The notes under the pieces are model-generated. The model saw only the letters and a program-made list of their open reading frames with translations. It was not told the DNA's origin and made no database searches. Both the position numbers and the translations under genes were made by a program. Shown here piece by piece: positions 12,306 through 63,849 of a stretch of 64,000 nt of DNA (the stretch's first letter is position 1; every line of letters starts with the position of its first letter). The stretch spans positions 15,776 through 79,775 of the forward strand of contig JAGOOK010000003.1 of the NCBI GenBank assembly GCA_017992555.1, written 5' to 3'. Origin of the DNA: Caldisericia bacterium. Its GTDB lineage: Bacteria > Caldisericota > Caldisericia > JAAYUI01.

Positions 12306-12355
12306 ACAGTCAACGCTTGACGCGGAATCTTTTTATACAATAATTTAGAAAGCAT

Positions 12356-12438
12356 GCCGGAGTGGCGAAATGGTAGACGCACGGGACTTAAAATCCTGCG
12401 GTGGTGACACTGTGCCGGTTCAAGTCCGGCCTCCGGCA
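12356..12438 (+). tRNA. tRNA-Leu (anticodon TAA), long variable arm, CCA not encoded
   Basis: Acceptor GCCGGAG/CTCCGGC, anticodon loop CTTAAAA, variable arm GCGGTGGTGACACTGTGC, T-loop GGTTCAAGTCC. Discriminator A is followed by GTTTTTT. Confidence 0.9.
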
Positions 12439-37525: not shown

Positions 37526-38226
37526 TACAGGGGGCCAAGTATCTTCTTTTCGAGCTCGATGATTTCGCTTACGCCCTTTTTCCCGAGTTCCAACATTTTG
37601 TTGAATGTGTCAAACGGGAACGTCGAGATTTCTGCGGTTGCCTGCACCTCAGCTATTTTTTGTGCCGAATCCATCACAAAATTCATGTCCACCTGGGCTC
37701 TGCTGTCCTCTTCGTAGTTCAGGTCGAGCCTCAATTCATTGTCGATTATGCCCAGCGAGACTGCGCCGAGATAGTCTTTGATTGGCATTTTCTTGAGCCC
37801 GATGTTTCTTAGGGCAATAACGAGCGAAACAAAGCCACCAACTATCGAGGCAACCCTTGTTCCGCCATCGGCCTGCACTATGTCGCAATCGATTGTTATT
37901 GAATTTTCGCCCAGCTGCTGCAAGTCAACAACAGAGCGTAGCGATCTTCCAATCAGCCTTTGTATTTCCACTGAACGTGCGGCTTTTTTGTTTATGTCCC
38001 GCTGGATTCTCTGGCGGGAGCACCTTGGAATCATTGAGTATTCTGCCGTCACCCAGCCCTGGCCAAGTTCCTTGAGCCAGTTGGGGACTTTTGGTTCCCA
38101 TGATGCCGTGCAGATTACTTTTGTCTCGCCCCAAACCACAAATGCCGATCCTTCGGCGTATTTCATGTAATTTGGTTCAATGGTTACTGGTCTTAGCTGA
38201 TCGTTTTCTCTATTGTTTGTTCTCAT
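37525..38226 (-). CDS. rph: Ribonuclease PH
   Basis: Has RENDQLRPVTIEPNYMKYAEGSAFVVWGETKVICTAS and CDIVQADGGTR. Confidence 0.95.
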   Translation of the reverse strand: MRTNNRENDQLRPVTIEPNYMKYAEGSAFVVWGETKVICTASWEPKVPNWLKELGQGWVTAEYSMIPRCSRQRIQRDINKKAARSVEIQRLIGRSLRSVVDLQQLGENSITIDCDIVQADGGTRVASIVGGFVSLVIALRNIGLKKMPIKDYLGAVSLGIIDNELRLDLNYEEDSRAQVDMNFVMDSAQKIAEVQATAEISTFPFDTFNKMLELGKKGVSEIIELEKKILGPL

Positions 38227-41200
38227 ATTGGCTCCTGGAAGAATTCTTTGATGCCAAGCTGTATTCCCTCTGCAAGCTTTTTAACGTTTACCTCTTCCCT
38301 TATCCAGCCTTCTCCTTTTTTGTTGCTCAGGAATAGAGGCTCGATAAGGATCGATGGTATTGATACAATCTCGCGGCAAACATAAAAGCCGCGTTTTTTG
38401 ATTCCTCTGTCCTCAAAACCAACCTTGGAAAGGACATTTTTGTGTATTTTTTCTGCAAGGCGCCTGCCTAAGTCCGTGTAATAGTAGGTTTCTGTCCCCT
38501 GGGCATCAGGGTCCCTTGCGGCATTGAAGTGGATTGAAATAAACATGTCAGCACCAGAGGAATTCGCAAGATTTGCCCTTCCTTCGAGATCCGGGGTTTT
38601 TATGTTTCTCTCCTCTGTTCTGGTGTATATGACGGTTGCCCCCTGGGAAGAAAGCATTTTCCCAAGCTCGAATGCTGTCTGGAGGTTCACCTCGGATTCA
38701 TAGGTGCCCATCATGCCGCTGCATCCGACGTCGTACGATCCGTCTTCATTGAAGGTGCCGTGGCCGGGGTCGATTATGATGGTTTTTCCATTGAGTCCTG
38801 ACTTGTTTTTCTCCTTGAGAGTAAAAATGAGCTTGTTTGGGCCCCTTGCCTCACCATAGCCTATCTCTTCCGTGGATTTTTTTGTTATCAGGATTGTTAC
38901 CTTTGGAGGGTTTGCATTGGTTCTTGGATCAAAATCGACAGAGACTTTTTTGGCATCAATCCCGCTTAATGCGTTTTCCCCAAGCACGCAGTTGTTCAGG
39001 GTTACCTTTGACCTTCCATCGGGAAGTTCGGTGACATCAAAGTCAGTGAAAAATGAAACCTGGGTTGAAAGGGTCGAGCATGTCTTGCTTGTGTCGAGGC
39101 ACCCCCCGATTTCCAGCTTGTCGATGACAGGGTCGAGATAAACCTTGTTTTGCACTGGCGAGTACATGTATGAGAAGCCAAGCATTGGTGCAACTGGCTC
39201 AATTGGAACATAGAAAGCGCTTCCCACAATTCTTGGGGCCGGCGCTATTGTTTTGTAGAATGAATTTTGGCCATCAACAACATGCATGGATGGCTTGAGA
39301 TTTGTAAACGAGAAGACAAAGGGTCTTTTTGGGTCGACACTCATTTCGGCCCTGTTTTCTTTGTCATCCCAGGAGATGATGTAGCCGAGGTGGGAGGCCA
39401 GTGCGCCAACCGGCACCATGACCTTGTTGTCAAGCAGCATTGGCGGGTCACTTGCGTGGACAGGCCTGCCCTGGATCTCAATCCTCATCTGGTTTGATTC
39501 GACTTTTTCGAAGATTTCCAGCACCAGCTCGGTTGATGTAGGGTTTAATGGGGAGAGGTGGTAATCGCAGGGCTTGTTTAACTGAAAAACGACCAGCACT
39601 GTTGGTGGTGAAACGGATTTCTGTTCGATGCCGACCCTCGAAACCAGCGTTGAATCAACAACAATCGGCTCCAGATCACCAGTGCAGAATGAATTATCCA
39701 GAAATAGCTGTATTCTCGGGTTGTCGTTGTAGCTCTTGATGTTCAGGGAGTTTGGCTTGGATGAAATCGGAATTGTAAACTTGAGGACATCGCCGCGTTT
39801 TGCCCACTGGATCTCACCCACATCGACCGGTTTTACAGGTTGGGGCTGTGTGTGCCTTTTGGTGTCCTCGGAAGATACCCATCCCGCCTGGTTGCCTGAG
39901 AGTATCCTGTAGTAAAGCCTGCCGCCTTCCCTTTGTGCTACAGATTCGATCTTGCCTTTTCCGCCGGCAAAAATCTTTGGGCCGCCACTTCCTGAAGGGA
40001 ATGATGCCAGTGTCGATTCTTTCTGGAGTTCAACCGTGAGCCCGAGAAGGTTTGCTGGTGGCAGGTCGACAGAGCCGGAAGTTTTTACCTTTGTGCTTGT
40101 TACCCATCCCGTTTCTCCCTGCTGGGTTGTCAGGAGATACCACGTTCCGCCATCCGAGTTGAGCGCAGAACCCGATATTGTGCATTTGCTTTCCCGCGGG
40201 ACAACGCCAAGCAGTTTTCCGCCCTGGCTTGGGGCAAGCCTGAGCTGTGCTTTTGCCGCCACAATGTCAAACGGGCTTGAAGATGTTGTTTCGACCATTG
40301 ACCCAAGGACCCAGCCCACGCCGAAATCTCCTTGAACTTTCAACCACATCTTCCCGTTTACATCAGATTTTTTTGACAGTATTTGCACCACAACCTGGGA
40401 CTTTGTTGTGTAGACTTTGGCAAAGTTCAGGCCAGCATCTTTCCTAACGTTCACGTTTTTTGATATGATGCCCTTTTGTTTTGAAGTCGATTCTTCAAGT
40501 ATTGGTGTTGCTGTCTTGGCGAGGTCTGATCTTACCCATGCGTGAGTTCCTGTGGGGAGAACAATCTCGTACCAGATTTTGCCATCCACATCCTTTGATT
40601 TGGCCACAACCGATGGTCTGATGGTTGACGTTGTCCTGTTCACAACGGGGGATTTTGTTGATGGTCCTGATCTCAGATTTGTGAGTGGGTCAATGATTAT
40701 CGTAAGGTTTTTGACCTCTTCCTTTGCGACCTGTGTGGATTTGATTTCGTCAATCAGCCCTGCGCCGATCCAGCCGAAACGGCCATTCCCCAGCGAAAGC
40801 TTGTACCAGTCTTTCCCGTCATCACCCTTTGTTTTGGCAACGACTGGCAATTCTATTTTTGTCTTTATTTGCAAGGCCACGCTCGAAGATGTGTTTGGAG
40901 ACGACCTCAAGTTTATAATGCCAGAATTGGGGTCTATAACAGCAACCTGGCCGTCAATTTTTTCCTCGGTGCCTGTCCTCTGGACTTTGACCACCCATGA
41001 TGCCACAAAGCCTTTTTTGCCTGGCGAAGCCTCAACTTCGAACCATGTCTTGCCGGACTTGTCTTTTGTTTCGGAAATTACGTTTAGGTCTTTTGGCGGC
41101 TGTATTCTTGCAAGCACTTTCGCGTCAACTGACGGCGACATCCTTATATTGGTTGCCTGATATATTTTGACTATAGTTTTCGACTGGACATAGGGCAGGG

Positions 41201-41252
41201 AACCAAAAAAGATGCAAAAAGCCAGCAAAAGCAAAATTGTTTTTTTGTTCAT
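38223..41252 (-). CDS. Secreted multi-SH3b, stalk-domain N-acetylmuramoyl-L-alanine amidase (Amidase_3)
   Basis: 1009 aa. Signal peptide, then about seven SH3b-like repeats (NIRMSPSVDAKVL...GFVASWVV pattern), then a copper-amine-oxidase-N-like segment (LLDNKVMVPVGALASHLGYIISWD). The C-terminus reads IIIDPGHG...ADMFISIHFNA...GTETYYY. Confidence 0.85.
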   Translation of the reverse strand: MNKKTILLLLAFCIFFGSLPYVQSKTIVKIYQATNIRMSPSVDAKVLARIQPPKDLNVISETKDKSGKTWFEVEASPGKKGFVASWVVKVQRTGTEEKIDGQVAVIDPNSGIINLRSSPNTSSSVALQIKTKIELPVVAKTKGDDGKDWYKLSLGNGRFGWIGAGLIDEIKSTQVAKEEVKNLTIIIDPLTNLRSGPSTKSPVVNRTTSTIRPSVVAKSKDVDGKIWYEIVLPTGTHAWVRSDLAKTATPILEESTSKQKGIISKNVNVRKDAGLNFAKVYTTKSQVVVQILSKKSDVNGKMWLKVQGDFGVGWVLGSMVETTSSSPFDIVAAKAQLRLAPSQGGKLLGVVPRESKCTISGSALNSDGGTWYLLTTQQGETGWVTSTKVKTSGSVDLPPANLLGLTVELQKESTLASFPSGSGGPKIFAGGKGKIESVAQREGGRLYYRILSGNQAGWVSSEDTKRHTQPQPVKPVDVGEIQWAKRGDVLKFTIPISSKPNSLNIKSYNDNPRIQLFLDNSFCTGDLEPIVVDSTLVSRVGIEQKSVSPPTVLVVFQLNKPCDYHLSPLNPTSTELVLEIFEKVESNQMRIEIQGRPVHASDPPMLLDNKVMVPVGALASHLGYIISWDDKENRAEMSVDPKRPFVFSFTNLKPSMHVVDGQNSFYKTIAPAPRIVGSAFYVPIEPVAPMLGFSYMYSPVQNKVYLDPVIDKLEIGGCLDTSKTCSTLSTQVSFFTDFDVTELPDGRSKVTLNNCVLGENALSGIDAKKVSVDFDPRTNANPPKVTILITKKSTEEIGYGEARGPNKLIFTLKEKNKSGLNGKTIIIDPGHGTFNEDGSYDVGCSGMMGTYESEVNLQTAFELGKMLSSQGATVIYTRTEERNIKTPDLEGRANLANSSGADMFISIHFNAARDPDAQGTETYYYTDLGRRLAEKIHKNVLSKVGFEDRGIKKRGFYVCREIVSIPSILIEPLFLSNKKGEGWIREEVNVKKLAEGIQLGIKEFFQEPI

Positions 41253-45866: not shown

Positions 45867-45959
45867 GGAGAGGTGGCCGAGCGGTTGAAGGCACTCGCCT
45901 GCTAAGCGAGTAACTGGTGTAAAACTGGTTCACGAGTTCGAATCTCGTCCTCTCCGCCA
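45867..45959 (+). tRNA. tRNA-Ser (anticodon GCT), CCA encoded
   Basis: Acceptor GGAGAGG/CCTCTCC, anticodon stem CTCGC/GCGAG with loop CTGCTAA, long variable arm, T-loop AGTTCGAATCT, 3' GCCA. Confidence 0.92.
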
Positions 45960-45968
45960 GAGGTAATC

Positions 45969-47426
45969 ATGACAGAGAAAATCAGGGTCAGAATAGCCCC
46001 GTCACCAACCGGCAAATTACACATTGGCAACGCAAGAACAGGCCTTTTCAACTATCTTTTTGCAAGACACTATGGTGGAACATTCATCCTTAGGATAGAT
46101 GATACCGATACCGAACGCTCCACCCCAGAGGCCGAAAAAGCCATTTTTGATGGCCTCAAGTGGCTTGGAATCACATGGGACGAGGGTCCGGATATTGGCG
46201 GAAATTATGGCCCGTACAAACAGACTGAAAGATTCGATACATATAAGGAGGCACTGGACAGGCTCCTTGAAGATGGCCATGCTTACTATTGTTTTTGCTC
46301 ACCGGAAGAGATAGAGCAAAAACGTACTACAGCCGAGAAGGCACACGAGATATACAGATACGACAATACTTGCCGCACTGTTCCCCTTGATGAGGCAAGA
46401 AAAAGAATCGCCAATGGTGAAAGGGCCGTAATAAGGCTCCGCGTTCCAGAGGGCACCGAGGCCAATTTCCATGATCTCATTAGGGGCGACATCGAGGTTG
46501 ATTCCGAGACTTTCGATGATTTTGTCATTGCAAAGCCTGGCGGGGCACCACTTTACAATTTTGCAACGGTCATTGATGACCATCTGATGGACATAACCCA
46601 TATCCTAAGAGGGCAGGACCATCTCACAAATACATCAAAACAGATCCTTATTTACAGGGCTCTTGGTTGGGACGTCCCAAAGTTTGGACACTTCTCGCTT
46701 ATTTTGGACACCAACCGCAAAAAACTCTCGAAGAGAGCTGGAGCTGTATATATCGGCGATTTTCAGGAACAGGGTTATCTTCCACAGACAGTGGCGAACT
46801 TTATTGCTCTAATTGGCTGGTCACCAGGTGAAAACAAGGAAAAAATGACCATGGAAGAGATGATTGGAGCTTTCTCCATGGACCACGTTCAAAAAGCCGA
46901 TGCCGTCTTTGATCCTGAAAAGCTGAAATGGCTCAATGGTGTTTACATAAGGGAAATGTCGCTGGAAAATCTTGTCGAAGCGGTCAAGCCCCATCTTAGA
47001 AATGCTGGTTTTGAGGTCGACAATGTTGACCAGGAATGGCTCAAAAAAGTTGTCTTCCTTGAGCAGGAGAGGATGAGGCTGTTCTCCGAGGCCTCGGAGC
47101 TGTTTGACTTCTTCTTCAAGGACATTCCATACGACAAATCGCTGCTTTCTTCAAAAAAGCACTCCGATGACGAACTTGCAAGGGCGCTTGGGCAAACCAG
47201 GGAACAGCTCGAAGGAATATCAAGCTGGAACAAGGAAGAACTTGAGAATCTTTGCAGGTCGCTTGCATCCCAGATGGGCTGGCAGGGTGGCGACCTTTTC
47301 ATGCCGCTCAGGATTGCGGTCACAGGAAAGAAGGCAACACCGCCACTTTTTGAGACCATGGAAGTCCTTGGCAAAGAGCTTAGCTTAAAACGCATTGACA
47401 AAGCCATACAGTCGCTTAAAAAGTAA
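45969..47426 (+). CDS. gltX: Glutamate--tRNA ligase
   Basis: 485 aa with RIAPSPTGKLHIGNART (HIGH) and KLSKR (KMSKS). Confidence 0.95.
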   Translation: MTEKIRVRIAPSPTGKLHIGNARTGLFNYLFARHYGGTFILRIDDTDTERSTPEAEKAIFDGLKWLGITWDEGPDIGGNYGPYKQTERFDTYKEALDRLLEDGHAYYCFCSPEEIEQKRTTAEKAHEIYRYDNTCRTVPLDEARKRIANGERAVIRLRVPEGTEANFHDLIRGDIEVDSETFDDFVIAKPGGAPLYNFATVIDDHLMDITHILRGQDHLTNTSKQILIYRALGWDVPKFGHFSLILDTNRKKLSKRAGAVYIGDFQEQGYLPQTVANFIALIGWSPGENKEKMTMEEMIGAFSMDHVQKADAVFDPEKLKWLNGVYIREMSLENLVEAVKPHLRNAGFEVDNVDQEWLKKVVFLEQERMRLFSEASELFDFFFKDIPYDKSLLSSKKHSDDELARALGQTREQLEGISSWNKEELENLCRSLASQMGWQGGDLFMPLRIAVTGKKATPPLFETMEVLGKELSLKRIDKAIQSLKK

Positions 47427-47428
47427 GT

Positions 47429-47501
47429 GCGGCTGTAGCTCAACGGATAGAGCAACGGCCTACGGAGCCGTAGGTTGCAGGTTCAAGTCCTGTCAGCCGC
47501 G
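47429..47501 (+). tRNA. tRNA-Arg (anticodon ACG), CCA not encoded
   Basis: Acceptor GCGGCTG/CAGCCGC, anticodon stem ACGGC/GCCGT with loop CTACGGA, T-loop GGTTCAAGTCC. Begins 2 nt after the gltX stop. Confidence 0.92.
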
Positions 47502-47511
47502 CTTGTCATTT

Positions 47512-47970
47512 ATGACGACGCTGCCGCACCTTATACAACTTGCATTTGATCAGGCCCTTGTTGCTTTTGAAAAAGGCGAGGTGCCTGTTGGTGCAGTGGT
47601 GGCAAAAGGCAGTGAAGTTCTTGGCCTTGGCCACAACCTGACCCTCACGCTCAAAGACCCTACAGCCCATGCAGAAATAATGGCCATAAGAGACGCGACC
47701 TCAAAGCTTGGTGACTGGCGCTTGCCAGATTGTCAGATTTATGTAACCCTCGAACCTTGCACCATGTGCGTTGGGGCGATCCTCCTCTCAAGGATTGAAA
47801 CCATCAATTTTCTGGCCTATGATCCAAAGGATGGGGCTTGTGGAAGCACAAAAAATCTTGCCGTCCAGCCAATATTTGGCCACTGCGCAAAGGTCATAAA
47901 AATTGATGACGGCGGGCGTTCCTCGGATCTCATCAGGGAATTTTTCAGACTCAGGAGGGAAAACAAATGA
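47512..47970 (+). CDS. tadA: tRNA adenosine(34) deaminase
   Basis: Starts MTTLPHLIQLAFDQA. Deaminase zinc motifs HAEIMAI and LEPCTMCVGA. The ORF-track start at 47395 runs through the tRNA, so I trimmed it. Confidence 0.92.
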   Translation: MTTLPHLIQLAFDQALVAFEKGEVPVGAVVAKGSEVLGLGHNLTLTLKDPTAHAEIMAIRDATSKLGDWRLPDCQIYVTLEPCTMCVGAILLSRIETINFLAYDPKDGACGSTKNLAVQPIFGHCAKVIKIDDGGRSSDLIREFFRLRRENK

Positions 47971-48905
47971 ACCACACATTCATCAGTGATTTTCAAAAAG
48001 GCCAGGAGATTGATGATTACTATGCTGTCGCAAAAAAGCTCAAAAAATCCACAAAAGCTGGCAGTTTCTTTATTTCACTGATATTGTCAGATCGCACCGG
48101 AAGGGTTGATGCTATCGTATGGAACACCACGCTGGCAAAATTTGGTGAAGATTACAATGAAAACCAGGTTGTCAGGGTGTGTGGAAGGGTCGACGAATAC
48201 GACGGCAAAATCCAGATCGTTGTTGAAAAGATTGGCATAGGTGACCCCACAAAGTACGAGTCCTCATGGTTTCTTCCCCAATCACCTATCCCTGTTGAAG
48301 ACATAATGCGCCAGATAAATGCAATGGTGGCATCGGTTGGCGACGAAAAGCTGAAACAGATGGCCGTGTCATTTCTTGGTGATGAAAACCTTTCCCAAAG
48401 CTTCAGAGTGGCCCCGGGGGCTGTCTATCTACACCATGCCTACCTTGGGGGTCTTGCCGCCCACACGCTTGCTGTAATGAAGTTTTGCGACTCCCTGTGC
48501 CAGCTCTATCCGCTAAATCGCGATCTGCTCATTGTTGCTGCGCTATTTCACGATGTCGGCAAAATGGTCGAAAATACATGGGAACTCATCTTCAAAAGGA
48601 CAATCGAAGGCGAGCTTGTCGGCCACCTCATAATCAGCCGCGATATCCTCAGGGAATTCACAAAGTCTACAGGAATAGCACCTGAAGTCGCGCTCCATCT
48701 TGAACACTGCATTCTCTCGCACCATGGCCAGTATCTGTATGGTTCGCCAAAACTCCCGATGACGAGGGAGGCTTTTGCGTTACACGTTGCAGACCTTGCC
48801 GACTCAAGGTTCGAGGAGTTTGAAAGAGAGCTGAAAAACATTGCACAGGGCGAGTCCACCGAGCCAATAAGATATCTGGACAACATCAAGCTTTTCAACC
48901 TGTGA
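47967..48905 (+). CDS. OB-fold + HD-domain 3'-5' exoribonuclease, YhaM family
   Basis: N-terminal OB (FISLILSDRTGRVDAIVW...VCGRVDEYDGKIQI) and an HD domain (HHAYLGGLAAHTL...AALFHDVGK). Confidence 0.75.
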   Translation: MNHTFISDFQKGQEIDDYYAVAKKLKKSTKAGSFFISLILSDRTGRVDAIVWNTTLAKFGEDYNENQVVRVCGRVDEYDGKIQIVVEKIGIGDPTKYESSWFLPQSPIPVEDIMRQINAMVASVGDEKLKQMAVSFLGDENLSQSFRVAPGAVYLHHAYLGGLAAHTLAVMKFCDSLCQLYPLNRDLLIVAALFHDVGKMVENTWELIFKRTIEGELVGHLIISRDILREFTKSTGIAPEVALHLEHCILSHHGQYLYGSPKLPMTREAFALHVADLADSRFEEFERELKNIAQGESTEPIRYLDNIKLFNL

Positions 48906-49699
48906 TCCTCCAGAACCCCAGAAAATATGGTGTTCCGCCCTTCAGCATCGCTGTTGTCCATGGCGGTCCGGGGGCCTGCGGTGAGATGGCGCCTGTTGCA
49001 AGGGAGCTTTCGTCTCTTTTTGGTGTGATGGAGCCGCTCCAGACCGCAACAACCATAGATGGGCAGGTCAAGGAGCTTGAAGAGGCAATAAAAACCCATG
49101 GCAGTCCGCCGGTGGCGCTTATTGGTCACTCGTGGGGCGCATGGCTGGCCTTCATCTTTGCCGCAAAAAACCCTTTGCTGGTTGGGGAACTTGTCCTTGT
49201 GGGGAGCGGGCCGTTTGAGGAAAGATATGCTTCAAAAATAATGCCGGCGCGGCTTTCCAGGCTCCCAGAAAACGAGCGCAACGAGCTTGCCGGACTCTTG
49301 AAGAAGATGGAAAATCAGGGCGAAAAAGACAGCGATGCAATAATGGACAGGGTCGGCGACCTCATTTCAAAGTCAGACCACTTCGACCCATTGCCTTTGG
49401 AACCGGAGCCGGTGGAGTTCAAGCCGGAGGTCTATAAGGGCGTGTGGCCGGAGGCATCACGTCTCAGGCAAAGCGGGGAGTTGCTGGAAATGGGCAAAAA
49501 AATCGCCTGCCCGGTGGTGGCAATCCACGGCGACCACGACCCGCACCCGGCCGATGGCGTGAGGGTCCCGCTTGAAAAAACCCTAAAAAACTTCAAGTTT
49601 GTCCTGCTGGAAAAGTGCGGGCATGACCCGTGGCTGGAAAAGCACGCAAGGGAAAAGTTCTTTGAGGTGCTGAAAGGGGAGCTTGGCAGTAAAATCTAG
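48902..49699 (+). CDS. Alpha/beta-fold hydrolase
   Basis: Nucleophile elbow LIGHSWGAW. C-terminal AIHGDHDPHP and GHDPW (catalytic His region). Confidence 0.75.
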   Translation: MILQNPRKYGVPPFSIAVVHGGPGACGEMAPVARELSSLFGVMEPLQTATTIDGQVKELEEAIKTHGSPPVALIGHSWGAWLAFIFAAKNPLLVGELVLVGSGPFEERYASKIMPARLSRLPENERNELAGLLKKMENQGEKDSDAIMDRVGDLISKSDHFDPLPLEPEPVEFKPEVYKGVWPEASRLRQSGELLEMGKKIACPVVAIHGDHDPHPADGVRVPLEKTLKNFKFVLLEKCGHDPWLEKHAREKFFEVLKGELGSKI

Positions 49700-49772
49700 G
49701 CCAAGCAACAGGAGGCTGTGAAACCTCCACCTTGATTTTGAAACCCAGACATTTAGAATTTTCATGGTTTGT

Positions 49773-49865
49773 GGAGAGGTGGCTGAGCGGTTGAAAGCGC
49801 CTGACTCGAAATCAGGTAAGTGGGCAATCCCTGCTTCGGGGGTTCGAATCCCCCCCTCTCCGCCA
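49773..49865 (+). tRNA. tRNA-Ser (anticodon CGA), CCA encoded
   Basis: Acceptor GGAGAGG/CCTCTCC, anticodon stem CCTGA/TCAGG with loop CTCGAAA, long variable arm, T-loop GGTTCGAATCC, 3' GCCA. Confidence 0.92.
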
Positions 49866-56444: not shown

Positions 56445-57293
56445 TTGTCTTTTGCGCAATTATGTCTCTTGAATTTATTAGGAACGCGTATTAGGCTAAA
56501 AGTGGTGAATATCGTTTGGGCTGGCCTTTCCAATACCGGTAAAATAAAAGAAAACAATGAGGACCATTATGCCATTGTTCCCCCTCAGTATCCTGAACTT
56601 CCCTATATCTTCGCCATATCCGATGGTGTCGGTGGAAGAAAAGGTGGCGACCTTGCCTCGGTGAGAGCGATTCAGGTCATAAGCGACTATTTTGTTCGTC
56701 ATTTGCCAAAATCTTACAATTCCCCTGAAGTAACGCAAAAAGCCTTTGAGATTGCAAATAGTGACCTCAGGTTAACAGGCTCATCAAATGCCAATCTGAG
56801 TGGAATGGGAACAACGGTTGTTTTTGCCGCTCTTTTCGAGGACACCCTCCAGGTAACATGGATCGGAGACTCAAGGGCTTACATACTAAGAAAAAATATT
56901 TTAGAGCAGATCACAACCGATCACACTCTGCCAAATGAATTGTTCAAAAGGGGCTCAATAACCCAAAAACAACTTAAAAACCACCCTTGCAAACATCATT
57001 TGGTGCGCGCATTGGGAATTGATGAAACAGTAAAGCCGGAAATGGTGCAGGTTCCAGCTCAAAATCTTGAATGGATGGTTTTGTGCACTGACGGACTCTA
57101 TGAACATGTTTCTGATATAGAAATCCAGGGAGCCATCCAGAAACTAAATGACCCAACTTTGGTTACCAAAAAACTCATTCAGATGGCCCTTTCAAGGGGT
57201 GGAACCGACAATGTGACTGTGGTTGTGGTAAAGATGGCTGGCACACAAGCAAAAGAAGACAAGGCCAGCAAAAACAGGTTTGGTATCTTCTAG
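56445..57293 (+). CDS. PP2C-family Ser/Thr protein phosphatase
   Basis: Has NEDHYAI, AISDGVGG, GMGTTVV, WIGDSRAY, LCTDGL, GGTDNVTVVVV. The true start is probably a GTG at 56502/56505. Confidence 0.88.
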   Translation: MSFAQLCLLNLLGTRIRLKVVNIVWAGLSNTGKIKENNEDHYAIVPPQYPELPYIFAISDGVGGRKGGDLASVRAIQVISDYFVRHLPKSYNSPEVTQKAFEIANSDLRLTGSSNANLSGMGTTVVFAALFEDTLQVTWIGDSRAYILRKNILEQITTDHTLPNELFKRGSITQKQLKNHPCKHHLVRALGIDETVKPEMVQVPAQNLEWMVLCTDGLYEHVSDIEIQGAIQKLNDPTLVTKKLIQMALSRGGTDNVTVVVVKMAGTQAKEDKASKNRFGIF

Positions 57294-57811
57294 GAATCTT
57301 TTGGGACGATCCTGACTTCTCCACCACAATATGGACATTTTGTTATCGGTTGTGAGAGTGGCTGTTCCCTTCCACAATAAATGCACTTTCTTACCATCTT
57401 TTTTGGTTTTACGGAATCAAAAATATAATATTGGCCATCATTTGCCATCTCTGCCCTGCAGTTGCCGGCAGAGCAGAGCCTGTCAAGCGATTCAAGTGCC
57501 TGGCCCTTGTTTACATAAAGGTTTGAGACGACCATTTCAGCTGTGAGCTTTCCGTCGTATTTTGATGCAAGCCTTAGCACATCGGCATCAATGAACGCAG
57601 GCGTATTCTGGTCAACATTTCTTTTTAGAACAGATGAGACAACAAATGCCGCTATTGCCGCGGCGGCCATAATAAGCGCCGTCATGACGCGCGATGAGTT
57701 GGCTGATGATGCAATAAAAAAGAGTATTGAAAGAGCGGCAAGAGCAATGCCCGCAATTATCAAAACAACAAAAAGAGTTCTTTTTACAAAGAGCATCTCT
57801 ATCCTTTCCAT
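57290..57811 (-). CDS. Two-TM membrane protein with cytoplasmic domain and C-terminal zinc ribbon
   Basis: TMs LFVVLIIAGIALAALSILFFIA and ALIMAAAAIAAFVVSSVL. The C-terminus reads CIYCG...CPYCGG. Last gene of the rSAM operon; its stop overlaps the PP2C stop convergently. Confidence 0.6.
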   Translation of the reverse strand: MERIEMLFVKRTLFVVLIIAGIALAALSILFFIASSANSSRVMTALIMAAAAIAAFVVSSVLKRNVDQNTPAFIDADVLRLASKYDGKLTAEMVVSNLYVNKGQALESLDRLCSAGNCRAEMANDGQYYIFDSVKPKKMVRKCIYCGREQPLSQPITKCPYCGGEVRIVPKDS

Positions 57812-58959
57812 GAAGCCGTGGCTTCTTTTATCGAACCTGCAACATCTTCAAACATCCCCTTGATTCCTGATTCGGTGAGGTTGTTTTTGATGATCCCGTC
57901 CACTGATTCGGCCAAATCTTTGGGGTTCTCGCAGAGCTTTTTTTCGTCTTTGACCTTCAATGCCACATCTTTCCAGGCTGAATGGAATTTGATAGCGCTA
58001 TCTGGGATTGCGATCTCCAGTTTTTTCAGCGCCTGGTGCATGTTTTGCTCGTCCAGCAGCCCCTTGAATGTGTTTCTGATGTTTGACAGGCCCTCTGATA
58101 TTCCATTTAGAGAACCTAGTATTGAGGACATTTTTTTAAGACCCTCAACGAGCAGATTGGCCTTTTCCTTGTTTTTTGCAATTGCCTTGAAATTTTCATC
58201 CAGCTCTTTTGGAAGGCCTGGTTTCCCAGAGAAAGACTCGACTGCTGGCCCAAGCGCTGCCATGAGCACCAATGAGTCAAAATTTCCCTGTATCTCGCTC
58301 TTTTCCACAAGCAGGCTGGCCGCTTCGCTTTGTATCGCCATCCATCTCTGGGTTATCTCATTGCATGCAAGCTGATTGTCTGTGAGGTCTTTTTTCCATG
58401 CTTTCCTAACATTTTCTATCTCTGCGGTGAGCTGTTTCAGCCTGTCGAGTGATTTTTTGTACTCCTTTTCGAGCATTGTTACTTTTGAACCGGCAAACCA
58501 TCCGCTTATCCCGTCGTATTTTGCCAGCTGCCTGGAAAGCAGGAGAGTTTCTTTTTTGGCCTCTTCTATTTTTGGTTTGAGGGCCTCTTCCTGTTCATTC
58601 AGCTCGGGGTTTTCTTTTGAAAGCCCGACCAGCTTCTGGACGTTTTTTTCCTCAATCTCGCCGGCTTCCTTGTTTAATTTTGCCAGTTCTGACTCAATTT
58701 TCTCCAGTTTCTCTTTGAAGAGTTTTTCCTGGGCAGTTTTTTCTTTTTCGATGATATTTTTGAGGTCACCAGGCAATGAATCCATCTTGCCTTTTATGAA
58801 AACGGCAGATTTCTCTAGCCTGCTTTTTGAGTCCTGGTGGAGCTTTACAAGTTCTGCATTGAAAGACTGTTGTGCCTCTTCAAGCTCCGTATAAAGCTGT
58901 TTTATGTCGCCAGTCCATGAATCGACAAGTTTTATTGTGTCTGAAAGGTCAAGCTTCAT
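57799..58959 (-). CDS. Soluble coiled-coil protein, function unknown
   Basis: 386 aa, Lys/Glu/Leu-rich with a heptad-like pattern. AGGAGG SD 8 nt upstream. Overlaps the rSAM stop by 11 nt. Confidence 0.6.
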   Translation of the reverse strand: MKLDLSDTIKLVDSWTGDIKQLYTELEEAQQSFNAELVKLHQDSKSRLEKSAVFIKGKMDSLPGDLKNIIEKEKTAQEKLFKEKLEKIESELAKLNKEAGEIEEKNVQKLVGLSKENPELNEQEEALKPKIEEAKKETLLLSRQLAKYDGISGWFAGSKVTMLEKEYKKSLDRLKQLTAEIENVRKAWKKDLTDNQLACNEITQRWMAIQSEAASLLVEKSEIQGNFDSLVLMAALGPAVESFSGKPGLPKELDENFKAIAKNKEKANLLVEGLKKMSSILGSLNGISEGLSNIRNTFKGLLDEQNMHQALKKLEIAIPDSAIKFHSAWKDVALKVKDEKKLCENPKDLAESVDGIIKNNLTESGIKGMFEDVAGSIKEATASWKG

Positions 58960-60346
58960 CAGCTACGCCTCCTACCGGCCTAGATTTGCCGACGTATTTT
59001 CTTTTTGCTTTCCAGAGCAACTCTGGAATGATTTTTCTTCCCTTTCCAAGCTCGTCAAAACATCCCCTGTTGTCCCAGTAAAGAGGGCATGCCCCGCAAC
59101 AGACGTTTTTCTTGTCGCAATCACTGCATACTGGTGGGACAAACTCCTTTTTTCTGAAGTAGAGAGACTGCCTGTTGAACCAGATGTCCCTAAAATTCTC
59201 TTTTAGTAAATTTCCAACCCCATTTTCAAAAGAAGAACAGGGTAGAACTGACCCATCTGGTGCCACTGAAAGCAGGCCGTCGGATGCTGCACAGCTTGTT
59301 CCACCAATGCCTTCGGCGACAGTGTTTATGATGCAATATGGCATAGGGGAGTACCACACCAGCTTTATTCCTGCTTTTTTGCACTCCGATTTTATCTTTG
59401 GGAGCACCCTGGCAATCTCGGTGTATCCGACCTCGTCAGGATGGTCCTGCGCATGGCCGGTCCTTATCACCATGTTCATCGACTGGTACTCGAGCCCAAG
59501 CTCCTCTTTTGCGAATTTTGGCAGCTGGTCAACATAGTCAATGTTGTCCTTGCATATCGTTGTGTTTATGTGGGTGTGTATTCCCAGAGACTTGAGTTTC
59601 TTGAACCCGTCAACGGTTTTTCTGAATGCCATTGGGTGGCCAACCACCCTGTCATGGACTTCTGGTATGGATGATTCAAGGGAAACCTGTGCCGAATCCA
59701 GCCCGGCTTCTTTCAATCTGTATGGCAGGTCTGTAACGCCACACATTATGCCGTTGGTTATCAGGTTCACTCTCAAACCAATGCTTTTTGCATAAGAAAC
59801 TATTTCTACGATATCTTTGCGCAGAGTTGGCTCTCCGCCAGTTAACGAAACCGTTGGCACCTTGGCGTCGTTTTTGATTGTCAGGAGGATTTTTTTTACC
59901 TGTTCAGTCGTCATTCCTGGCAATGCCTTTCCCCTCTCGGGTGAAGATGCATAGCAAAAAACGCATTTGTTCTGGCAACGGTAGGTCAGCGCAATCTCCG
60001 AGAGAACAGGCAGTTCCCTCTTGTGGGAGCCAAAGCTAGTCGTTTTGACCTGCACAGGCATACATTCTGGGCTTTTCAGGAGCTCAAGGATTGTTTCCAG
60101 GAGTCTCCTGGCGTCCTTTGCGACGTCCTCTTCCTTGACACCATAATTGTTGGCTACATCTTTTATCGCAAGGTAGGATTGCCCCTGGGGCAGGGAATAC
60201 ATCTTCCCCAAAAGCTCAACGCCGGTCCTGTTGAGGTAATGGACCTTGTTGGGTTTTATGATCAGGACCCCGTCCTCGTCCCTTACAAACACATAATCTC
60301 TTGTGCTGTCAACAACCTGGTTGACAAATTGCCCATAATTATCCAT
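58949..60346 (-). CDS. Radical SAM / SPASM-domain maturase with N-terminal PqqD-like (RRE) domain
   Basis: CQNKCVFC (CX3CX2C) and C-terminal CSDCDKKNVCCGAC (CX2CX5CX3C). The N-terminus reads VFVRDEDGVLIIKPNKVHYLNRTGVELL...DVAKDARRLLETI. The ATG at 60346 overlaps the upstream stop as TAATG (the ORF track offers a TTG at 60376). Confidence 0.88.
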   Translation of the reverse strand: MDNYGQFVNQVVDSTRDYVFVRDEDGVLIIKPNKVHYLNRTGVELLGKMYSLPQGQSYLAIKDVANNYGVKEEDVAKDARRLLETILELLKSPECMPVQVKTTSFGSHKRELPVLSEIALTYRCQNKCVFCYASSPERGKALPGMTTEQVKKILLTIKNDAKVPTVSLTGGEPTLRKDIVEIVSYAKSIGLRVNLITNGIMCGVTDLPYRLKEAGLDSAQVSLESSIPEVHDRVVGHPMAFRKTVDGFKKLKSLGIHTHINTTICKDNIDYVDQLPKFAKEELGLEYQSMNMVIRTGHAQDHPDEVGYTEIARVLPKIKSECKKAGIKLVWYSPMPYCIINTVAEGIGGTSCAASDGLLSVAPDGSVLPCSSFENGVGNLLKENFRDIWFNRQSLYFRKKEFVPPVCSDCDKKNVCCGACPLYWDNRGCFDELGKGRKIIPELLWKAKRKYVGKSRPVGGVADEA

Positions 60347-62982
60347 TAGAAGCTGGATACGCAGGCACTGTGGCAAGCCGAGTGGCAGGCACTATGGCAA
60401 ACGCAGGCACTGTGGCATGCGGAATGGCATGCGGAATGGACACACGCCGAGTGGCAAGCATCATGCACGCAAGCGCTGTGGCAAGCCGAGTGGCAAGCGG
60501 AATGGCATGCATCATAAGCCTTGTTTGCGACATTTGGTATACCCAATCCCAATGCGTTTTCTACAGCCTCTGTAGTTTTTGAAACTGCGCCTTCAACAGA
60601 TGAAGCAAGGCTTGATGCAAAATTTTCCACCGAGGAAGCCGCTTTGTCTGCCCATCCGACGAAAACGGGCTGATACTGGTTCGGGAGCCGCCTCACGTTG
60701 TCATGGTATCTGTCAGAGAGAATGAGCCATGGAATCATCCTGCGGGTGTAGAGTTCATCAACAGGAGCAGCACCCCTTCTGTAGAGGTTCCATGAGTTTT
60801 CTATCTCGTCCTGGTATTTTTTCCTTGTGGCCTTGGGGTCGGCGTCCCATATCTTGCCGGACAGCGATTTGGCCACAGCATCAATAATTGTGGAGACTTT
60901 GTCTCTTGGAATTGTTCCCTCTGGAGTCACGCATTCAAGAAGCGCTTTTTCATAAGGTTCTGTTGCCAGTTTTGGATTGGTTAGCTCAAGCTGGATCGGT
61001 GTCTTGCCGACTATCGTTACAGCATTTTTTGTTGCAAGCTGGAGCACTATCAGCCCTATCACCTTGTCCTGCTGACCAAGATACATTGCAGCCTCGATGG
61101 CGTTCAGGTCGGCAATCTTTCCCTCTACAGAGAATGTTTCGAGCTCTATTTCTGGCGACTCGTACTTTGTGGCTTCCCTTATCTGCTTGAGTCTGGCCTT
61201 TCTCTTGCCTATCTTTGCCAGCCAGAAAAGCAGCAAAATTCCAAGGATGAGGAACGCAAAGAATATTATCGTGCCTGACCTGTCGTGCCAGAACCTTGCA
61301 AACAGGAACCCCTTCTTGAAGGTCCCTGCGGGGAAACTGACATACAAATTTTCAAGCCCCTCTGGCTTGATGGATGAAATCTCGGAGTAGATCTTGTTTC
61401 CTTCAGCCTTGAAGCTGTCGGAATTTGCATTGCCAGGGTAGTACACTTCGGCCGGTCCAAGGCCTTCAGGGTAGGTCAGTTCTATATAAAGTTTCTTTAT
61501 TGCAGCATTGCTGTTTCCAAACAGCAGACCAAGATCGAAGTATTGAAAATCCTCGTTCGTGTCAGTGTATGTGCCGTCTATTGCGGCACCATATATTTTA
61601 AAACCGTATCTGAACGTTTTTTTCTCGCCGTTTTTTGCGCCCCAGTAATAAGTCAGTTTCTGCCAGTCGAAAATATCGTGGTATGTCCTGAGGATGTATG
61701 TGCCAGGGGTGCCTGATTTGGAGAGAATAAAGTCCGTTTCATTTTCTTTTACAAAAGAGGCCTCCATCCACTGGTATTTGTCCAGTGTTATCGATATTTC
61801 GTTGCTCCAGTCGCCCTTGTTGCCCCTGAATAGCATGTCCGACTGGATTTCGTATGTGGCGGTCCCCTTTGAATCGATATCAATTTTTATCTTTGCCGAT
61901 TCTATTACCTGGCTGGTCACATTTTCAGCGTTATATGTGGCTTCTGGCGTTGCCATTATTACTGAATCGTTTTTGCCGATGATTTTTGCCTGGTAGTAGG
62001 CTGTCTCGCCGGGTTCCAGCGAGTCGCTATCGAGGAGAAAATATGTGTTGCTGTTGCTGGCCTTGATCAGCTCATTCTGGAATACTCTTGTTTTGTTACC
62101 AATTTTTCTGACAAGTTGCAGTTTCCCGCTACTTAGCCATTTTGGGTCAACATTCATGATGTTGACCGTTCTCGTGTCGTCATCGATTCCGGCAACAATG
62201 TTTATAAAAAAGTTTTTTTCTTCCTTTTCTGGGGGGTTTACTTGTGAAGTGAAATATTTTTCTGGAAGGAAAAGCTCGACATAGGCTTTTTCTTTAGCAG
62301 CGGCATTGTCTTTCTCTGCATGAATCGAAAGATAGTTTTTGCCCGTTCTTTCGTCCGGAGTTGGGAAGAAGATGAATCTGTCAAAATTTGACTTGTTCGA
62401 TTCGTTTGTTTGCAGTTCTGTTGCGTCTACTACGGCGTCTGTGACCTGTTCCGGCTTGTTAATGTTGCTGGAGAGCTCAATTGGAAGGACAATCTGGACA
62501 ATGATCTTTTCGATTGGCACGCTCCACTGGATTGGTGCCCAGCCAAAGTCCCTTGTCCCTTGCTTGGAATTGCCGGTAATATCGCGATCAATTGCGTATT
62601 CCCAATGTAAGGTGTATGTTTTTCCCGGAACAGTTTCAGAACCAAATTCTGCCTTATAAAAATTATCCCCCAGGGGAACAAGCGAAGCAGGGATTTTTTG
62701 GCTCCCTTCGAGGAGGTATTGGTCTTTTATCCTGTGTCCGCTGTCGAAAGGCCCAAGCTTGTTGATGACGTCCCTGCTCTCGGTCTCCAGGAACGTGAGG
62801 TCCTGCTTGACTGTTGCAGTGCCATCAGATTGAAGAACAAAGTAGCTCTTGAATTCTTTTAGGTCAGGGGCCCCAGCTGCTTTTAATGAGAGCAAGGGAA
62901 ACTGTAATAAAAAAAGAAAGAACAAGGCGAGCGAAATGGCCCGCCTTGTTTTGTCACTTCTTGCCACGAGTTGCGATCTCAT
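60346..62982 (-). CDS. DUF2207-like single-pass membrane protein with cytoplasmic C-terminal (A-C-H-S)n Cys/His repeat tail
   Basis: 878 aa. Signal peptide, then a large extracytoplasmic beta-rich part with a DUF2207-like N-domain (SVPIEKIIVQIVLP). TM IIFFAFLILGILLLFWLA followed by KIGKRKARLK. Cytoplasmic region LNAIEAAMYLG...LQLATKNAV, and a tail ending ...ACHSACHSACVSSF. Confidence 0.8.
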   Translation of the reverse strand: MRSQLVARSDKTRRAISLALFFLFLLQFPLLSLKAAGAPDLKEFKSYFVLQSDGTATVKQDLTFLETESRDVINKLGPFDSGHRIKDQYLLEGSQKIPASLVPLGDNFYKAEFGSETVPGKTYTLHWEYAIDRDITGNSKQGTRDFGWAPIQWSVPIEKIIVQIVLPIELSSNINKPEQVTDAVVDATELQTNESNKSNFDRFIFFPTPDERTGKNYLSIHAEKDNAAAKEKAYVELFLPEKYFTSQVNPPEKEEKNFFINIVAGIDDDTRTVNIMNVDPKWLSSGKLQLVRKIGNKTRVFQNELIKASNSNTYFLLDSDSLEPGETAYYQAKIIGKNDSVIMATPEATYNAENVTSQVIESAKIKIDIDSKGTATYEIQSDMLFRGNKGDWSNEISITLDKYQWMEASFVKENETDFILSKSGTPGTYILRTYHDIFDWQKLTYYWGAKNGEKKTFRYGFKIYGAAIDGTYTDTNEDFQYFDLGLLFGNSNAAIKKLYIELTYPEGLGPAEVYYPGNANSDSFKAEGNKIYSEISSIKPEGLENLYVSFPAGTFKKGFLFARFWHDRSGTIIFFAFLILGILLLFWLAKIGKRKARLKQIREATKYESPEIELETFSVEGKIADLNAIEAAMYLGQQDKVIGLIVLQLATKNAVTIVGKTPIQLELTNPKLATEPYEKALLECVTPEGTIPRDKVSTIIDAVAKSLSGKIWDADPKATRKKYQDEIENSWNLYRRGAAPVDELYTRRMIPWLILSDRYHDNVRRLPNQYQPVFVGWADKAASSVENFASSLASSVEGAVSKTTEAVENALGLGIPNVANKAYDACHSACHSACHSACVHDACHSACVHSACHSACHSACVCHSACHSACHSACVSSF
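60349..60510 (-). repeat. Coding tetrapeptide repeat: ACHS x3, ACVHD, ACHS, ACVHS, ACHS x2, ACV, CHS, ACHS x2, ACVSSF
   Basis: Direct translation of the minus strand gives 13 Cys at CXXX spacing and 11 His. The units use different synonymous codons. Confidence 0.9.
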
Positions 62983-63373
62983 TTTCGAGCCAAGGTGCTA
63001 TCTTGTCTCCACCATAAAGGTTTCCAAGTTCTCCTACGTCCTTCATTTCAACCTTGAATAACCAATTATTGTAAGGGTCCTTGTTAATTGCAGATGGGTC
63101 ATCTACGGCATCTTCATTGACTGCAATTACTGTTCCAGAGACAGGGCTATATATTTTCCCAAGCCATTTTCCGGTTTCAAGTGAGCCAACCTGATCATTC
63201 TGGGAAACCTCATCATCTTCCATTGGAAGTTCTATGAAGGAAATTTCCCCAGCAAGTTTGGTTCCAAATTCATCTATCCCAACGATTGCAACGTTGCCAT
63301 CTTTTTTAACCCAGAAATGCTCCTTGTGGTAATAAAGGTCATCTGGCAGATTATAGTCGCCAATTTTTGGCAT
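62954..63373 (-). CDS. Glycine-cleavage H-protein (lipoyl-carrier) family paralog 1
   Basis: 139 aa with YHKEHFWV..., VGIDEFGTKLAGEISFIELP, and SLETGKWLGKIYSPVSGTVIAVNE, which aligns to the ESVKA lipoyl-Lys motif. Overlaps the 878-aa gene by 29 nt. Confidence 0.8.
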   Translation of the reverse strand: MPKIGDYNLPDDLYYHKEHFWVKKDGNVAIVGIDEFGTKLAGEISFIELPMEDDEVSQNDQVGSLETGKWLGKIYSPVSGTVIAVNEDAVDDPSAINKDPYNNWLFKVEMKDVGELGNLYGGDKIAPWLENEIATRGKK

Positions 63374-63451
63374 ACGATACCTCCTTTAGATTCACTTAAA
63401 TATGATGAATTTTACAACGCTGTTTTCACCACGTCAACATGGAAAGGAACC

Positions 63452-63479
63452 TTGACAGAAAAGGCCTCTAGGCTAGAAT
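63452..63479 (+). promoter_or_regulatory. Sigma70-like promoter in the divergent GcvH-like intergenic region
   Basis: TTGACA-16 nt-TAGAAT. The -10 overlaps the ATG at 63478, so the real start of the downstream ORF may be the in-frame GTG at 63487. Confidence 0.35.
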
Positions 63480-63849
63480 GCGAAACGTGAACAATATTGA
63501 ATTGTACATAGAAATTGACGATTGTTGGGTCGGTCAGTGCGGTCCGGAATTTTATATTGGCCTGCTTCCCTCAACCATGGACAAGATCGGAAACGTGACC
63601 TTTGTAGACAGGATTCCCATCGGCAAGATATTGTCAAAAGGTGCAATAATCGGAATATTGGAAACATCAAAACTTGGTGATTGGCCTTTGAAGTCGCCCG
63701 TTAATGCTCTTGTACTTGCTTTTAATGATAAATTGAACAAAAATCCATCACTTTGTACTACAAGTGATATGGATGAAAACTGGATTGTGAAGTGTAAAGT
63801 CCAGGGCATATCAACGATCTCTGATCTTGGCGAAGCCAAGACGCGATAA
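63478..63849 (+). CDS. Divergent glycine-cleavage H-protein family paralog 2
   Basis: 123 aa. GNVTFVDRIPIGKILSKGAIIGILETSKLGDWPLKSPVNALVLAFNDKL aligns to the GcvH lipoyl-Lys region, but the N-terminal HEW-type motif is absent. Confidence 0.6.
   Translation: MRNVNNIELYIEIDDCWVGQCGPEFYIGLLPSTMDKIGNVTFVDRIPIGKILSKGAIIGILETSKLGDWPLKSPVNALVLAFNDKLNKNPSLCTTSDMDENWIVKCKVQGISTISDLGEAKTR

Follow-up and report, generated by a model that had tools for sequence, protein, structure and literature searches.

Here, we find that two adjacent genes in a 64,000-nucleotide stretch of a Caldisericia bacterium genome (the window, meaning the whole of the DNA analyzed) probably form a post-translational modification module, in which the Cys-rich tail of a large membrane protein is the substrate of a radical S-adenosylmethionine (rSAM) enzyme and the product is kept on the membrane protein. 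In the mechanism that we propose from gene content and conservation, the membrane protein would export an N-terminal beta-sandwich, pass the membrane once, and hold a globular domain and a 57-residue Ala-Cys-His-Ser tail in the cytoplasm. The next gene, translationally coupled to it, would supply an enzyme of the type that matures ribosomally synthesized and post-translationally modified peptides (RiPPs), consisting of a RiPP recognition element (RRE), a radical SAM core, and a SPASM domain. The RRE would dock on a conserved segment or domain that directly precedes the tail, and the radical SAM core would act repeatedly on the Cys of the Ala-Cys units, giving Cys-to-carbon thioether cross-links or oxidized Cys heterocycles such as thiooxazoles. 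The product, a Cys/His array that is either rigid or able to bind metals, would remain joined to the membrane protein, and in the window's clade, the modified protein probably works with a coiled-coil protein and a protein with two transmembrane (TM) helices and a zinc ribbon. The known products of RRE-radical SAM-SPASM enzymes are small secreted peptides; here, in more than 10 bacterial and archaeal phyla, such an enzyme is tied to the predicted cytoplasmic tail of a large envelope protein.

The original prediction had described five minus-strand open reading frames (ORFs) read as one unit with successive overlaps. All five are present in the ORF listing of the window (Table 1), and direct reading of the four junctions bore out each overlap: 29 nucleotides (nt) between the GcvH-like gene, which ends in GGC AAG AAG TGA, and the membrane-protein gene; 1 nt between the membrane-protein gene, which ends in AGC TTC TAA, and the rSAM gene, whose ATG shares an A with that stop codon to give TAATG (TTC TAA TGG); 11 nt between the rSAM and coiled-coil genes; and 13 nt between the coiled-coil and 2TM/zinc-ribbon genes. 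The genes do overlap, but "five-gene operon" overstates the conserved unit, since only the pair of membrane-protein and rSAM genes is kept throughout the family. Judging from the comparison of loci that follows, this pair is the conserved core of the system.

The tail is the best-conserved part of the membrane protein among orthologues, where it is retained; the original prediction had hinged on this. Its 13 Cys could be counted as described earlier, mostly at CX3C spacing, with two CX4C and one CXC in addition. Tails near-identical to it occur in 38 other loci from many phyla, a recurrence well in excess of what chance would give. In the Chloroflexota (loci L003 and L004 of our survey), the last 57 residues are 95 to 97% identical to the window tail in a membrane protein that is ~38% identical overall, and across phyla (L003 to L011), the tails share 93 to 97% identity at the protein level but only 71 to 76% at the DNA level. 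Compared with eight other loci, 23 to 33 of 58 tail codons differ synonymously and 2 to 7 of 58 nonsynonymously, and by this measure, the tail is under strong purifying selection. Tandem Repeats Finder reported only weak period-12/66 arrays. The weakness of the DNA-level repeat and the mostly synonymous cross-phylum differences rule out a DNA repeat or an assembly artefact as the origin of the tail. Among the tails surveyed, Ala stands directly before 354 of 386 Cys (92%) and His directly after 287 of 386. As a separate observation, many database copies of tail proteins stop at contig ends, which suggests that assemblies may often break near the repeat.

Enzyme and tail were found together in both directions of search. 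A profile scan for the enzyme, with one genome per species, gave 80 loci, which together with five earlier loci and the window made 86. A gene with a Cys-repeat tail ends at most 400 nt upstream on the same strand in 75 of the 86; in four more, all from Thorarchaeota, the tail gene is divergent from the rSAM gene, and in one, it lies downstream. Two loci are cut by a contig end, which leaves 84 to evaluate, and in 80 of these the tail gene is adjacent or nearby. Conversely, metagenome contigs were scanned for a back-translated pattern of three CHSA units, and of the 97 loci that had an entire tail and 600 nt or more of downstream sequence, 83 carry an rSAM homologue, usually starting 0 to 300 nt past the stop codon. 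The exceptions are, for the most part, Thorarchaeota loci with divergent genes or loci whose downstream sequence is too short. Homologues of this enzyme do, then, almost always lie beside Cys-repeat sequences, as the original prediction needed. Carriers of the pair in the enzyme-seeded survey include Chloroflexota, Spirochaetota, Myxococcota, Planctomycetota, Omnitrophota, Sumerlaeota, Desulfobulbus alkaliphilus DSM 24258, and Thor-, Heimdall-, and Bathyarchaeia. Source annotations name the family members only as "hypothetical protein," "radical SAM protein," or "PqqD family peptide modification chaperone." It is a large and ancient family that has not been curated.

The closest rSAM homologues, L001 (GCA_040961665.1; 72% identity) and L002 (a JGI metagenome; 67%), share the gene order of the window, including the genes for GcvH, a PP2C phosphatase, and a kinase-AAA-TPR protein, and their membrane proteins have almost the same tail. 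The rSAMs of the Chloroflexota loci L003 and L004 are 51 to 53% identical to that of the window; these loci are without GcvH, PP2C, and kinase genes, and their membrane proteins are 586 to 588 amino acids (aa) long, with the stop codon abutting the rSAM start. A 42-kb JGI metagenome contig (L112, Ga0116184_10000565) encodes an rSAM 97% identical to the window's together with the GcvH, coiled-coil, and zinc-ribbon genes, and it is probably from the same species. The D. alkaliphilus locus (L032, NZ_JAFFQC010000005.1) has its pair at 2175-3890 and 3983-5404 and a multi-TM accessory protein at 5074-6426. Because D. alkaliphilus DSM 24258 is cultured and carries the pair, it is a convenient choice for proteomic study of the native tail.

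The tails fall into classes that differ in sequence and host. The window's class, ACHS…ACVSxF, is found in Chloroflexota, Sumerlaeota, Spirochaetota, Myxococcota, and Thermoanaerobaculia. Tails of the form ACHS…ACVSGG[AS][HR] are found in Planctomycetota, Omnitrophota, WOR-3, Abditibacteriota, Thorarchaeota, and D. alkaliphilus DSM 24258, and this is the type of the L032 pair. Two classes without His, …CVCACxxCACACACVSCACACAGGGxx and …CACACACAGCACACAGGGR, occur in Bathyarchaeia, Heimdallarchaeota, Anaerolineae, Aminicenantes, and Clostridia. A small residue, mostly Ala, before the Cys is common to all classes. A neighbor-joining tree of the rSAMs splits cleanly by tail class (ACHS…F, ACHS…GG, and the two CACACA classes), and on this sequence evidence, we take enzyme and tail to have co-diversified. 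In the CACACA sister system (L041 to L085), the gene after that of the membrane protein (530 to 680 aa) encodes an rSAM with ~30% identity to that of the window. The other genes found beside the pair are specific to a clade. A class-I SAM methyltransferase (Methyltransf_11, E 6.5e-23) lies 3' of the rSAM gene in 19 loci of the CACACA classes, and the gene of a 124-aa zinc-ribbon protein lies 5' of the membrane-protein gene in 23; a multi-TM protein of ~330 aa is present in 12 loci of the GG-ending clade; and the F-ending ACHS clade has coiled-coil homologues 3' of the rSAM gene in 20 loci and 2TM/zinc-ribbon homologues in at least 14. Five further loci (L127, L128, L141, L174, and L177) have perfectly regular tails (…ACVSGGSH) and a gene of ~1 kb between the tail gene and the rSAM gene.

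The enzyme matched both domain profiles expected of it, with 91.7 bits against a threshold of 29.5 for Radical_SAM (PF04055) and 35.2 against 21.5 for SPASM (PF13186). The CX3CX2C motif and the C-terminal CX2CX5CX3C that had been read earlier are both there, the latter within the SPASM match, and their Cys are invariant in an alignment of 15 homologues. The seven invariant Cys of the SPASM region would bind auxiliary Fe-S clusters. The proposed PqqD-type N-terminal element fared less simply. The window protein itself remained below the Pfam threshold for PqqD (PF05402; 18.8 bits versus 23.4, E 0.0021), but homologues from other clades pass with 32.3, 31.2, and 29.5 bits, and PF05402 is among the precomputed annotations of most homologues. 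In addition, the AlphaFold model of the enzyme (mean predicted local distance difference test [pLDDT] score of 75) has the three-strand, three-helix layout of an RRE (strands 19-22, 27-30, and 34-37; helices 40-51, 58-68, and 72-91). Because the homologues pass the profile and the model shows this layout, we consider the predicted RRE domain real despite the subthreshold score.

We placed the enzyme relative to named families by hidden Markov model scores, and neither the rSAM nor the tail of the window reached any curated NCBIfam cutoff. StsB (NF045574) scored 107.5 bits against 625, the rSAM of the ACGX system (TIGR04340) scored 86.9 against 400, and SkfB (TIGR04403) scored 73.3 against 300. 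TIGR04115, which we take to be the model for the maturase of Cys-Xaa-Xaa-Xaa (CXXX)-repeat targets, was not among the best 25 of 76 NCBIfam matches and hence scored below 73 bits. The best whole-length matches in the PDB by Foldseek were SuiB, SkfB, and CteB, all RRE-bearing RiPP maturases, while a profile search of PDB sequences gave SkfB as the best match, GDGT-MAS as the second, and then PqqE. The anaerobic sulfatase-maturating enzyme (anSME) was distant in this search (E 1.5e-08), and QhpD was not among the best matches. A firm grouping with anSME or cofactor enzymes, which would have spoken for a substrate encoded elsewhere, was thus not seen: no cutoff was reached, and RiPP maturases were the best folds.

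The 878-aa membrane protein starts with a Sec-type signal peptide, followed by an extracytoplasmic beta-sandwich (aa 40-245) that was modelled by AlphaFold2 mostly with a pLDDT of >90 (means of 10-residue blocks, 86 to 98) and by a beta-rich, lineage-specific insert (aa ~250-560) that was poorly modelled. The DUF2207-like character noted earlier holds by a narrow margin, with the N-terminal domain profile (PF09972) at 27.0 bits against a gathering threshold of 24.4 (E 6e-06, residues 43 to 193). TIGR04222, with a cutoff of 43 bits, did not match the window protein or five other members, and the L004 orthologue reached 33.8 bits, a subthreshold match to its cytoplasmic domain. As the original prediction held, there is one clear TM helix: the hydropathy scan and the AlphaFold2 model agree, and the same arrangement of signal peptide, one TM helix, and positive flank is seen by hydropathy in relatives. 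We rejected a further TM helix at aa 641-659, with which the tail would lie outside, because these residues form a helix and a strand inside a globular domain with a pLDDT of >90; the segment is barely above the TM threshold in the window protein, and a similar marginal segment was seen only in the CACACA-class protein of L043. The last ~290 aa, tail included, are therefore predicted to lie in the cytoplasm, because a signal peptide and a single TM helix flanked by KIGKRKARLK precede them and aa 641-659 are not TM.

The cytoplasmic globular domain is conserved, with 20 to 62% identity by tblastn in 52 loci, the CACACA class included. Between it and the tail lies the amphipathic segment FVGWADKAASSVENFASSLASSVEGAVSKTTEAVENAL, a candidate leader-like docking site for the RRE on sequence grounds. 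Proteins with F-ending ACHS tails have a similarly placed amphipathic segment, none was seen in proteins with GG-ending ACHS tails, and CACACA-class proteins have a similar pre-tail segment of the form ..[DE]FA..[VI]......[VI]V....F[AT]..[IV]. By BLAST, the membrane proteins of all tail classes form one homology cluster of 74 loci. A word-indexed protein search returned 2 matches with the full-length protein and 21 with its C-terminal part; these 21 are without exception annotated as "hypothetical," and a contig end cuts many of them short. An exhaustive representative search was required to find the homologues. The PDB sequence search with this protein gave nothing informative. Its best PDB fold matches were to ribophorin I/Ost1 of the eukaryotic oligosaccharyltransferase (8b6l_O, E 5e-08; TM-scores of only 0.15 to 0.29), which shares the layout of a luminal beta-sandwich, one TM helix, and a cytosolic helical domain. 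The tail-bearing family is also present in metagenome-assembled genomes of Asgard archaea.

Several of these findings together lead us to see the tail as the likely substrate of the enzyme: a peptide-recognition domain is fused to a SPASM rSAM, this enzyme is coupled to the tail gene by stop and start codons, the pairing is found in both directions of search and across domains of life, the enzyme phylogeny tracks the tail class, the sister CACACA class has a tailoring methyltransferase as in RiPP clusters, and the tail is on the predicted cytoplasmic side, within reach of an oxygen-sensitive rSAM. By analogy, thioether cross-links and thiooxazoles of the SbtM type are the leading options for the chemistry. 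The Ala-Cys context fits an SbtM-type conversion of X-Cys to thiooxazole and fits equally well sactionine or ranthionine thioethers to neighboring Ala, Ser, or His carbons. His is absent from the CACACA classes and is therefore more likely a functional ligand, for example, of metals, than a catalytic requirement. Heme-c-like attachment, suggested by CHSACH as overlapping CX3CH and by AhbD as the best-scoring model, was set aside: the CACACA tails are His-free, AhbD is far below its cutoff, and the RRE points to a peptide.

Some observations weigh against a modified tail. Four of the 86 rSAM loci (L007, L025, L053, and L078) have no tail gene within reach. The tail was modelled with a pLDDT of <50. 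Conserved protease or exporter genes are missing from every class of locus, which speaks against a classical RiPP pathway, and the product is therefore expected to stay on the protein. The best NCBIfam scores of the enzyme are for cofactor enzymes, in the order AhbD (TIGR04545; 137.7 bits versus 500), NirJ2 (123.8 versus 500), TIGR04053, PqqE (113 versus 381), and StsB, all three cofactor models being far below their cutoffs. With 13 Cys and 11 His, the tail could bind metals or Fe-S clusters without any modification, and many Cys-tailed TIGR04222 proteins have no modifying enzyme in the genome (PMC12452194). These last points are also what favors the strongest alternative, in which the tail binds metals or Fe-S clusters in unmodified form (for example, as a metallochaperone, buffer, cluster donor, or regulator of the rSAM) and the enzyme acts on a tetrapyrrole, a lipid, or another protein; the lipid synthase Tes further down the NCBIfam list and GDGT-MAS as the second PDB sequence match fit it as well. 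We regard this as unlikely, because the RRE is a peptide-binding module that is kept across all tail classes, the enzyme phylogeny follows the tail sequence, no score comes near the cutoff of any cofactor family, and the CACACA class lacks His yet has the same enzyme.

A second possibility, to which we give little credence, is that the membrane protein is an oversized precursor whose modified tail is cut off as a free Cys-rich RiPP, the rest being a giant leader. RiPP precursors likewise have the core at the C terminus, some rSAM targets with CXXX repeats are small free proteins (TIGR04117 and TIGR04118), and the GG-type tails weakly resemble them. Against release stand the lack of any conserved protease, ABC exporter, or immunity gene in all locus classes, the cytoplasmic side of the tail, and a carrier of 500 to 900 aa whose conserved extracytoplasmic and cytoplasmic domains are themselves under selection. 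Finally, that adjacency reflects only co-regulation or assembly, for example, of an envelope-stress or signalling complex with the kinase and phosphatase and without an enzyme-substrate relation, is very improbable, since the syntenic kinase and PP2C genes of the closest relatives and the coiled-coil and zinc-ribbon partners that suggest a structural complex are set against a kinase and phosphatase that are absent outside the window's lineage and a pairing that persists across bacterial and archaeal phyla with unrelated neighbors and stop/start overlap.

Table 1. Features of the locus and of related loci (window positions, except where a locus is named)
Feature	Position	Strand	Basis or remark
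GcvH paralogue, 139 aa	62954..63373	-	First gene of the unit, in the window's lineage only
Tail-bearing membrane protein, 878 aa	60346..62982	-	ORF
Single stop-transfer TM helix, aa 571-589, then KIGKRKARLK	61216..61272	-	Hydropathy scan and positive-inside flank; AlphaFold2 helix 568-604
Conserved cytoplasmic globular domain, aa 628-760 (predicted)	60703..61101	-	AlphaFold2 pLDDT >90; common to ACHS and CACACA tail proteins
Amphipathic segment, aa 774-811	60550..60663	-	AlphaFold2 helix 773-810; 15 to 50 residues before first tail Cys
C-terminal ACHS-repeat tail, aa 822-878 (57 residues)	60349..60519	-	13 Cys, 11 His; proposed rSAM substrate
RRE(PqqD)-radical SAM-SPASM enzyme, 465 aa	58949..60346	-	ORF, profiles, and models; ATG overlaps stop of tail gene
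N-terminal RRE/PqqD-like domain, aa 1-91	60074..60346	-	AlphaFold2 elements and PqqD scores of homologues
CX3CX2C cluster motif CQNKCVFC, C124/C128/C131	59954..59977	-	Invariant in 15 aligned homologues
SPASM region, C338/C352/C370/C407/C410/C416/C420	59087..59335	-	Seven Cys invariant in the 15-homologue alignment
Coiled-coil protein, 386 aa, without TM helix	57799..58959	-	Accessory gene, clade with F-ending tails
173-aa protein, two N-terminal TM helices and C-terminal CxxC…CxxC zinc ribbon	57290..57811	-	Accessory gene, clade with F-ending tails
Sigma-70-like promoter match TTGACG-17-TAAAAT	63409..63437	-	Upstream of GcvH start; consensus scan only, 10 of 12 positions
PP2C phosphatase	56445-57293	+	Flanks operon; syntenic in L001 and L002
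Ser/Thr kinase-AAA_16-MalT-type TPR protein, 1225 aa	52744-56421	-	Flanks operon; syntenic in L001 and L002
CACACA-system examples	L043 4285-5889 and 5890-7230; L046 3265-4020		

The first gene of the unit is GcvH-like, as originally read: GCV_H (PF01597) gave 117.4 bits, NF002270 passed with 121.1 against 117, TIGR00527 stayed below its cutoff (106.1 versus 115.85), and the Lys at the lipoyl position is kept (ETGKW, read from the sequence). GcvH, PP2C, and kinase genes are restricted to the window's lineage (the window, L001, L002, and L112). A second GcvH paralogue in the window, at 63478-63849 on the plus strand and divergent from the coupled copy (GCV_H, E 8.9e-12), also keeps this Lys; relatives have two more paralogues beside gcvPA/gcvPB (L001 4453-5726; L002 4190-5450), and L002 has a second kinase-AAA-TPR gene of the same type. 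A terminator-like hairpin at 62921-62950 on the minus strand (12-bp stem with 7 G-C pairs, then a T-run) lies just 3' of the GcvH stop, within the first codons (signal-peptide region) of the membrane-protein gene, and could be an attenuator of read-through from GcvH or a matter of chance. The 386-aa coiled-coil protein had no family or PDB match beyond coiled-coil noise. For the 173-aa zinc-ribbon protein, the PDB sequence search gave nothing informative, and Zn_ribbon_3 scored 28.8 bits on the L004 orthologue. An anti-phage defense system was considered and rejected, as nothing beyond generic domain matches (to a viperin core, a kinase, and a coiled coil) came from PADLOC. Elsewhere in the window (10304-12438 and 45867-49862 among other positions) are six tRNA genes, a glutamyl-tRNA synthetase (45969-47426), a large SH3/Cu_amine_oxidN1/Amidase_3 cell-wall hydrolase (38223-41252), and a CBS-PolyA_pol protein; these genes mark the window as ordinary bacterial chromosome.

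The nearest named relative is the CXXX-repeat target/maturase system, and the original statement that such a family exists was right: NCBIfam includes TIGR04117 ("Cys-Xaa-Xaa-Xaa repeat radical SAM target protein") and TIGR04118, and Pfam has a new entry, PF27846 (tSAM_targ_Cxxx_rpt). As here, an rSAM/SPASM gene adjoins a sequence that ends in a Cys at every fourth residue, but those targets are small (profiles of 46 to 98 aa), whereas here, the repeat is the tail of a membrane protein of 530 to 880 aa. The window tail had no match to the CXXX-repeat target models scored at an E value of ≤10, GG-type tails gave 14.5 to 17.4 bits with TIGR04117 against a cutoff of 50, and PF27846 is precomputed as a weak match on two GG-type tail fragments (P0199 and P0176; L206 18-614). 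To our knowledge, the CXXX-repeat system is likewise uncharacterized. The synthases of sactipeptides and ranthipeptides (SkfB, CteB, StsB, PapB, and the SCIFF maturases) share the RRE-rSAM-SPASM architecture. They differ in that no free leader/core peptide, protease, or exporter is present here, and scores with their models are far below cutoffs. Thuricin CD has Cys at CX3C spacing, and freyrasin has CX3D repeats. QhpD/QhpC and anSME resemble the present system in that a SPASM enzyme modifies Cys in a protein rather than a peptide and the modification is retained for the protein's function, but their substrates, motifs, and context are unrelated to those found here.

SbtM is an rSAM/SPASM enzyme, a thio(seleno)oxazole-forming maturase that converts Gly-Cys to a thiooxazole (PMC9204691). 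It thus oxidizes a Cys preceded by a small residue, as Ala precedes 92% of the tail Cys here. In contrast, its substrate is a short peptide, and its model (TIGR04082) scored only 76.5 bits against 350 on the L004 orthologue and was not among the best 25 matches of the window enzyme.

We found no published description of an rSAM/Cys-tailed membrane-protein system in literature searches, so that the earlier remark that no described example of this architecture was known stands for the system itself; it does not stand entirely, since there is a partial precedent for a protein-tethered Cys tail as enzyme substrate. A 2025 survey proposed that MNIO (DUF692) enzymes modify the Cys-rich tails of TIGR04222 membrane proteins, which are mainly from Actinomycetota and whose tails are predicted to be periplasmic, and made no mention of a link to rSAM enzymes (PMC12452194). 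The two cases share a membrane protein whose C-terminal tail is Cys-rich and of low complexity; its gene adjoins that of a Cys-modifying enzyme of RiPP type, and it is the proposed protein substrate of this enzyme. The MNIOs depend on O2, whereas the enzyme here is an oxygen-independent rSAM/SPASM; the tails of their partners are predicted to be periplasmic, whereas the tail here is predicted to be cytoplasmic; and their hosts are mainly Actinomycetota, whereas those here are mostly anaerobic lineages. By these comparisons, the present family appears as the rSAM-linked, mostly anaerobic counterpart of the MNIO-TIGR04222 pair. A bolder and rather unlikely extension is that the rSAM is the anaerobic counterpart of the MNIOs in its chemistry too: it would turn the Ala-Cys units into a thiooxazole-type chain that with His forms a membrane-tethered metallophore or "bufferin"-like array, an ancient chemistry shared by bacteria and by Asgard, Bathy-, and other archaea, the His-free CACACA version being methylated in addition.

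If the tail is the substrate, RiPP chemistry would extend to the permanent modification of a membrane protein, and the pair would define a new protein family, very widespread and for the most part anaerobic, whose poly-Cys/His array could serve in metal handling, in redox function, or as a structural cross-link. The finding also offers a functional handle on a large group of DUF2207/TIGR04222-like proteins with Cys-rich tails. Among known systems, the comparisons support placing this family with the rSAM/SPASM enzymes that have a Cys-repeat target, and what would be new is the target itself, a tail carried by a large membrane protein.

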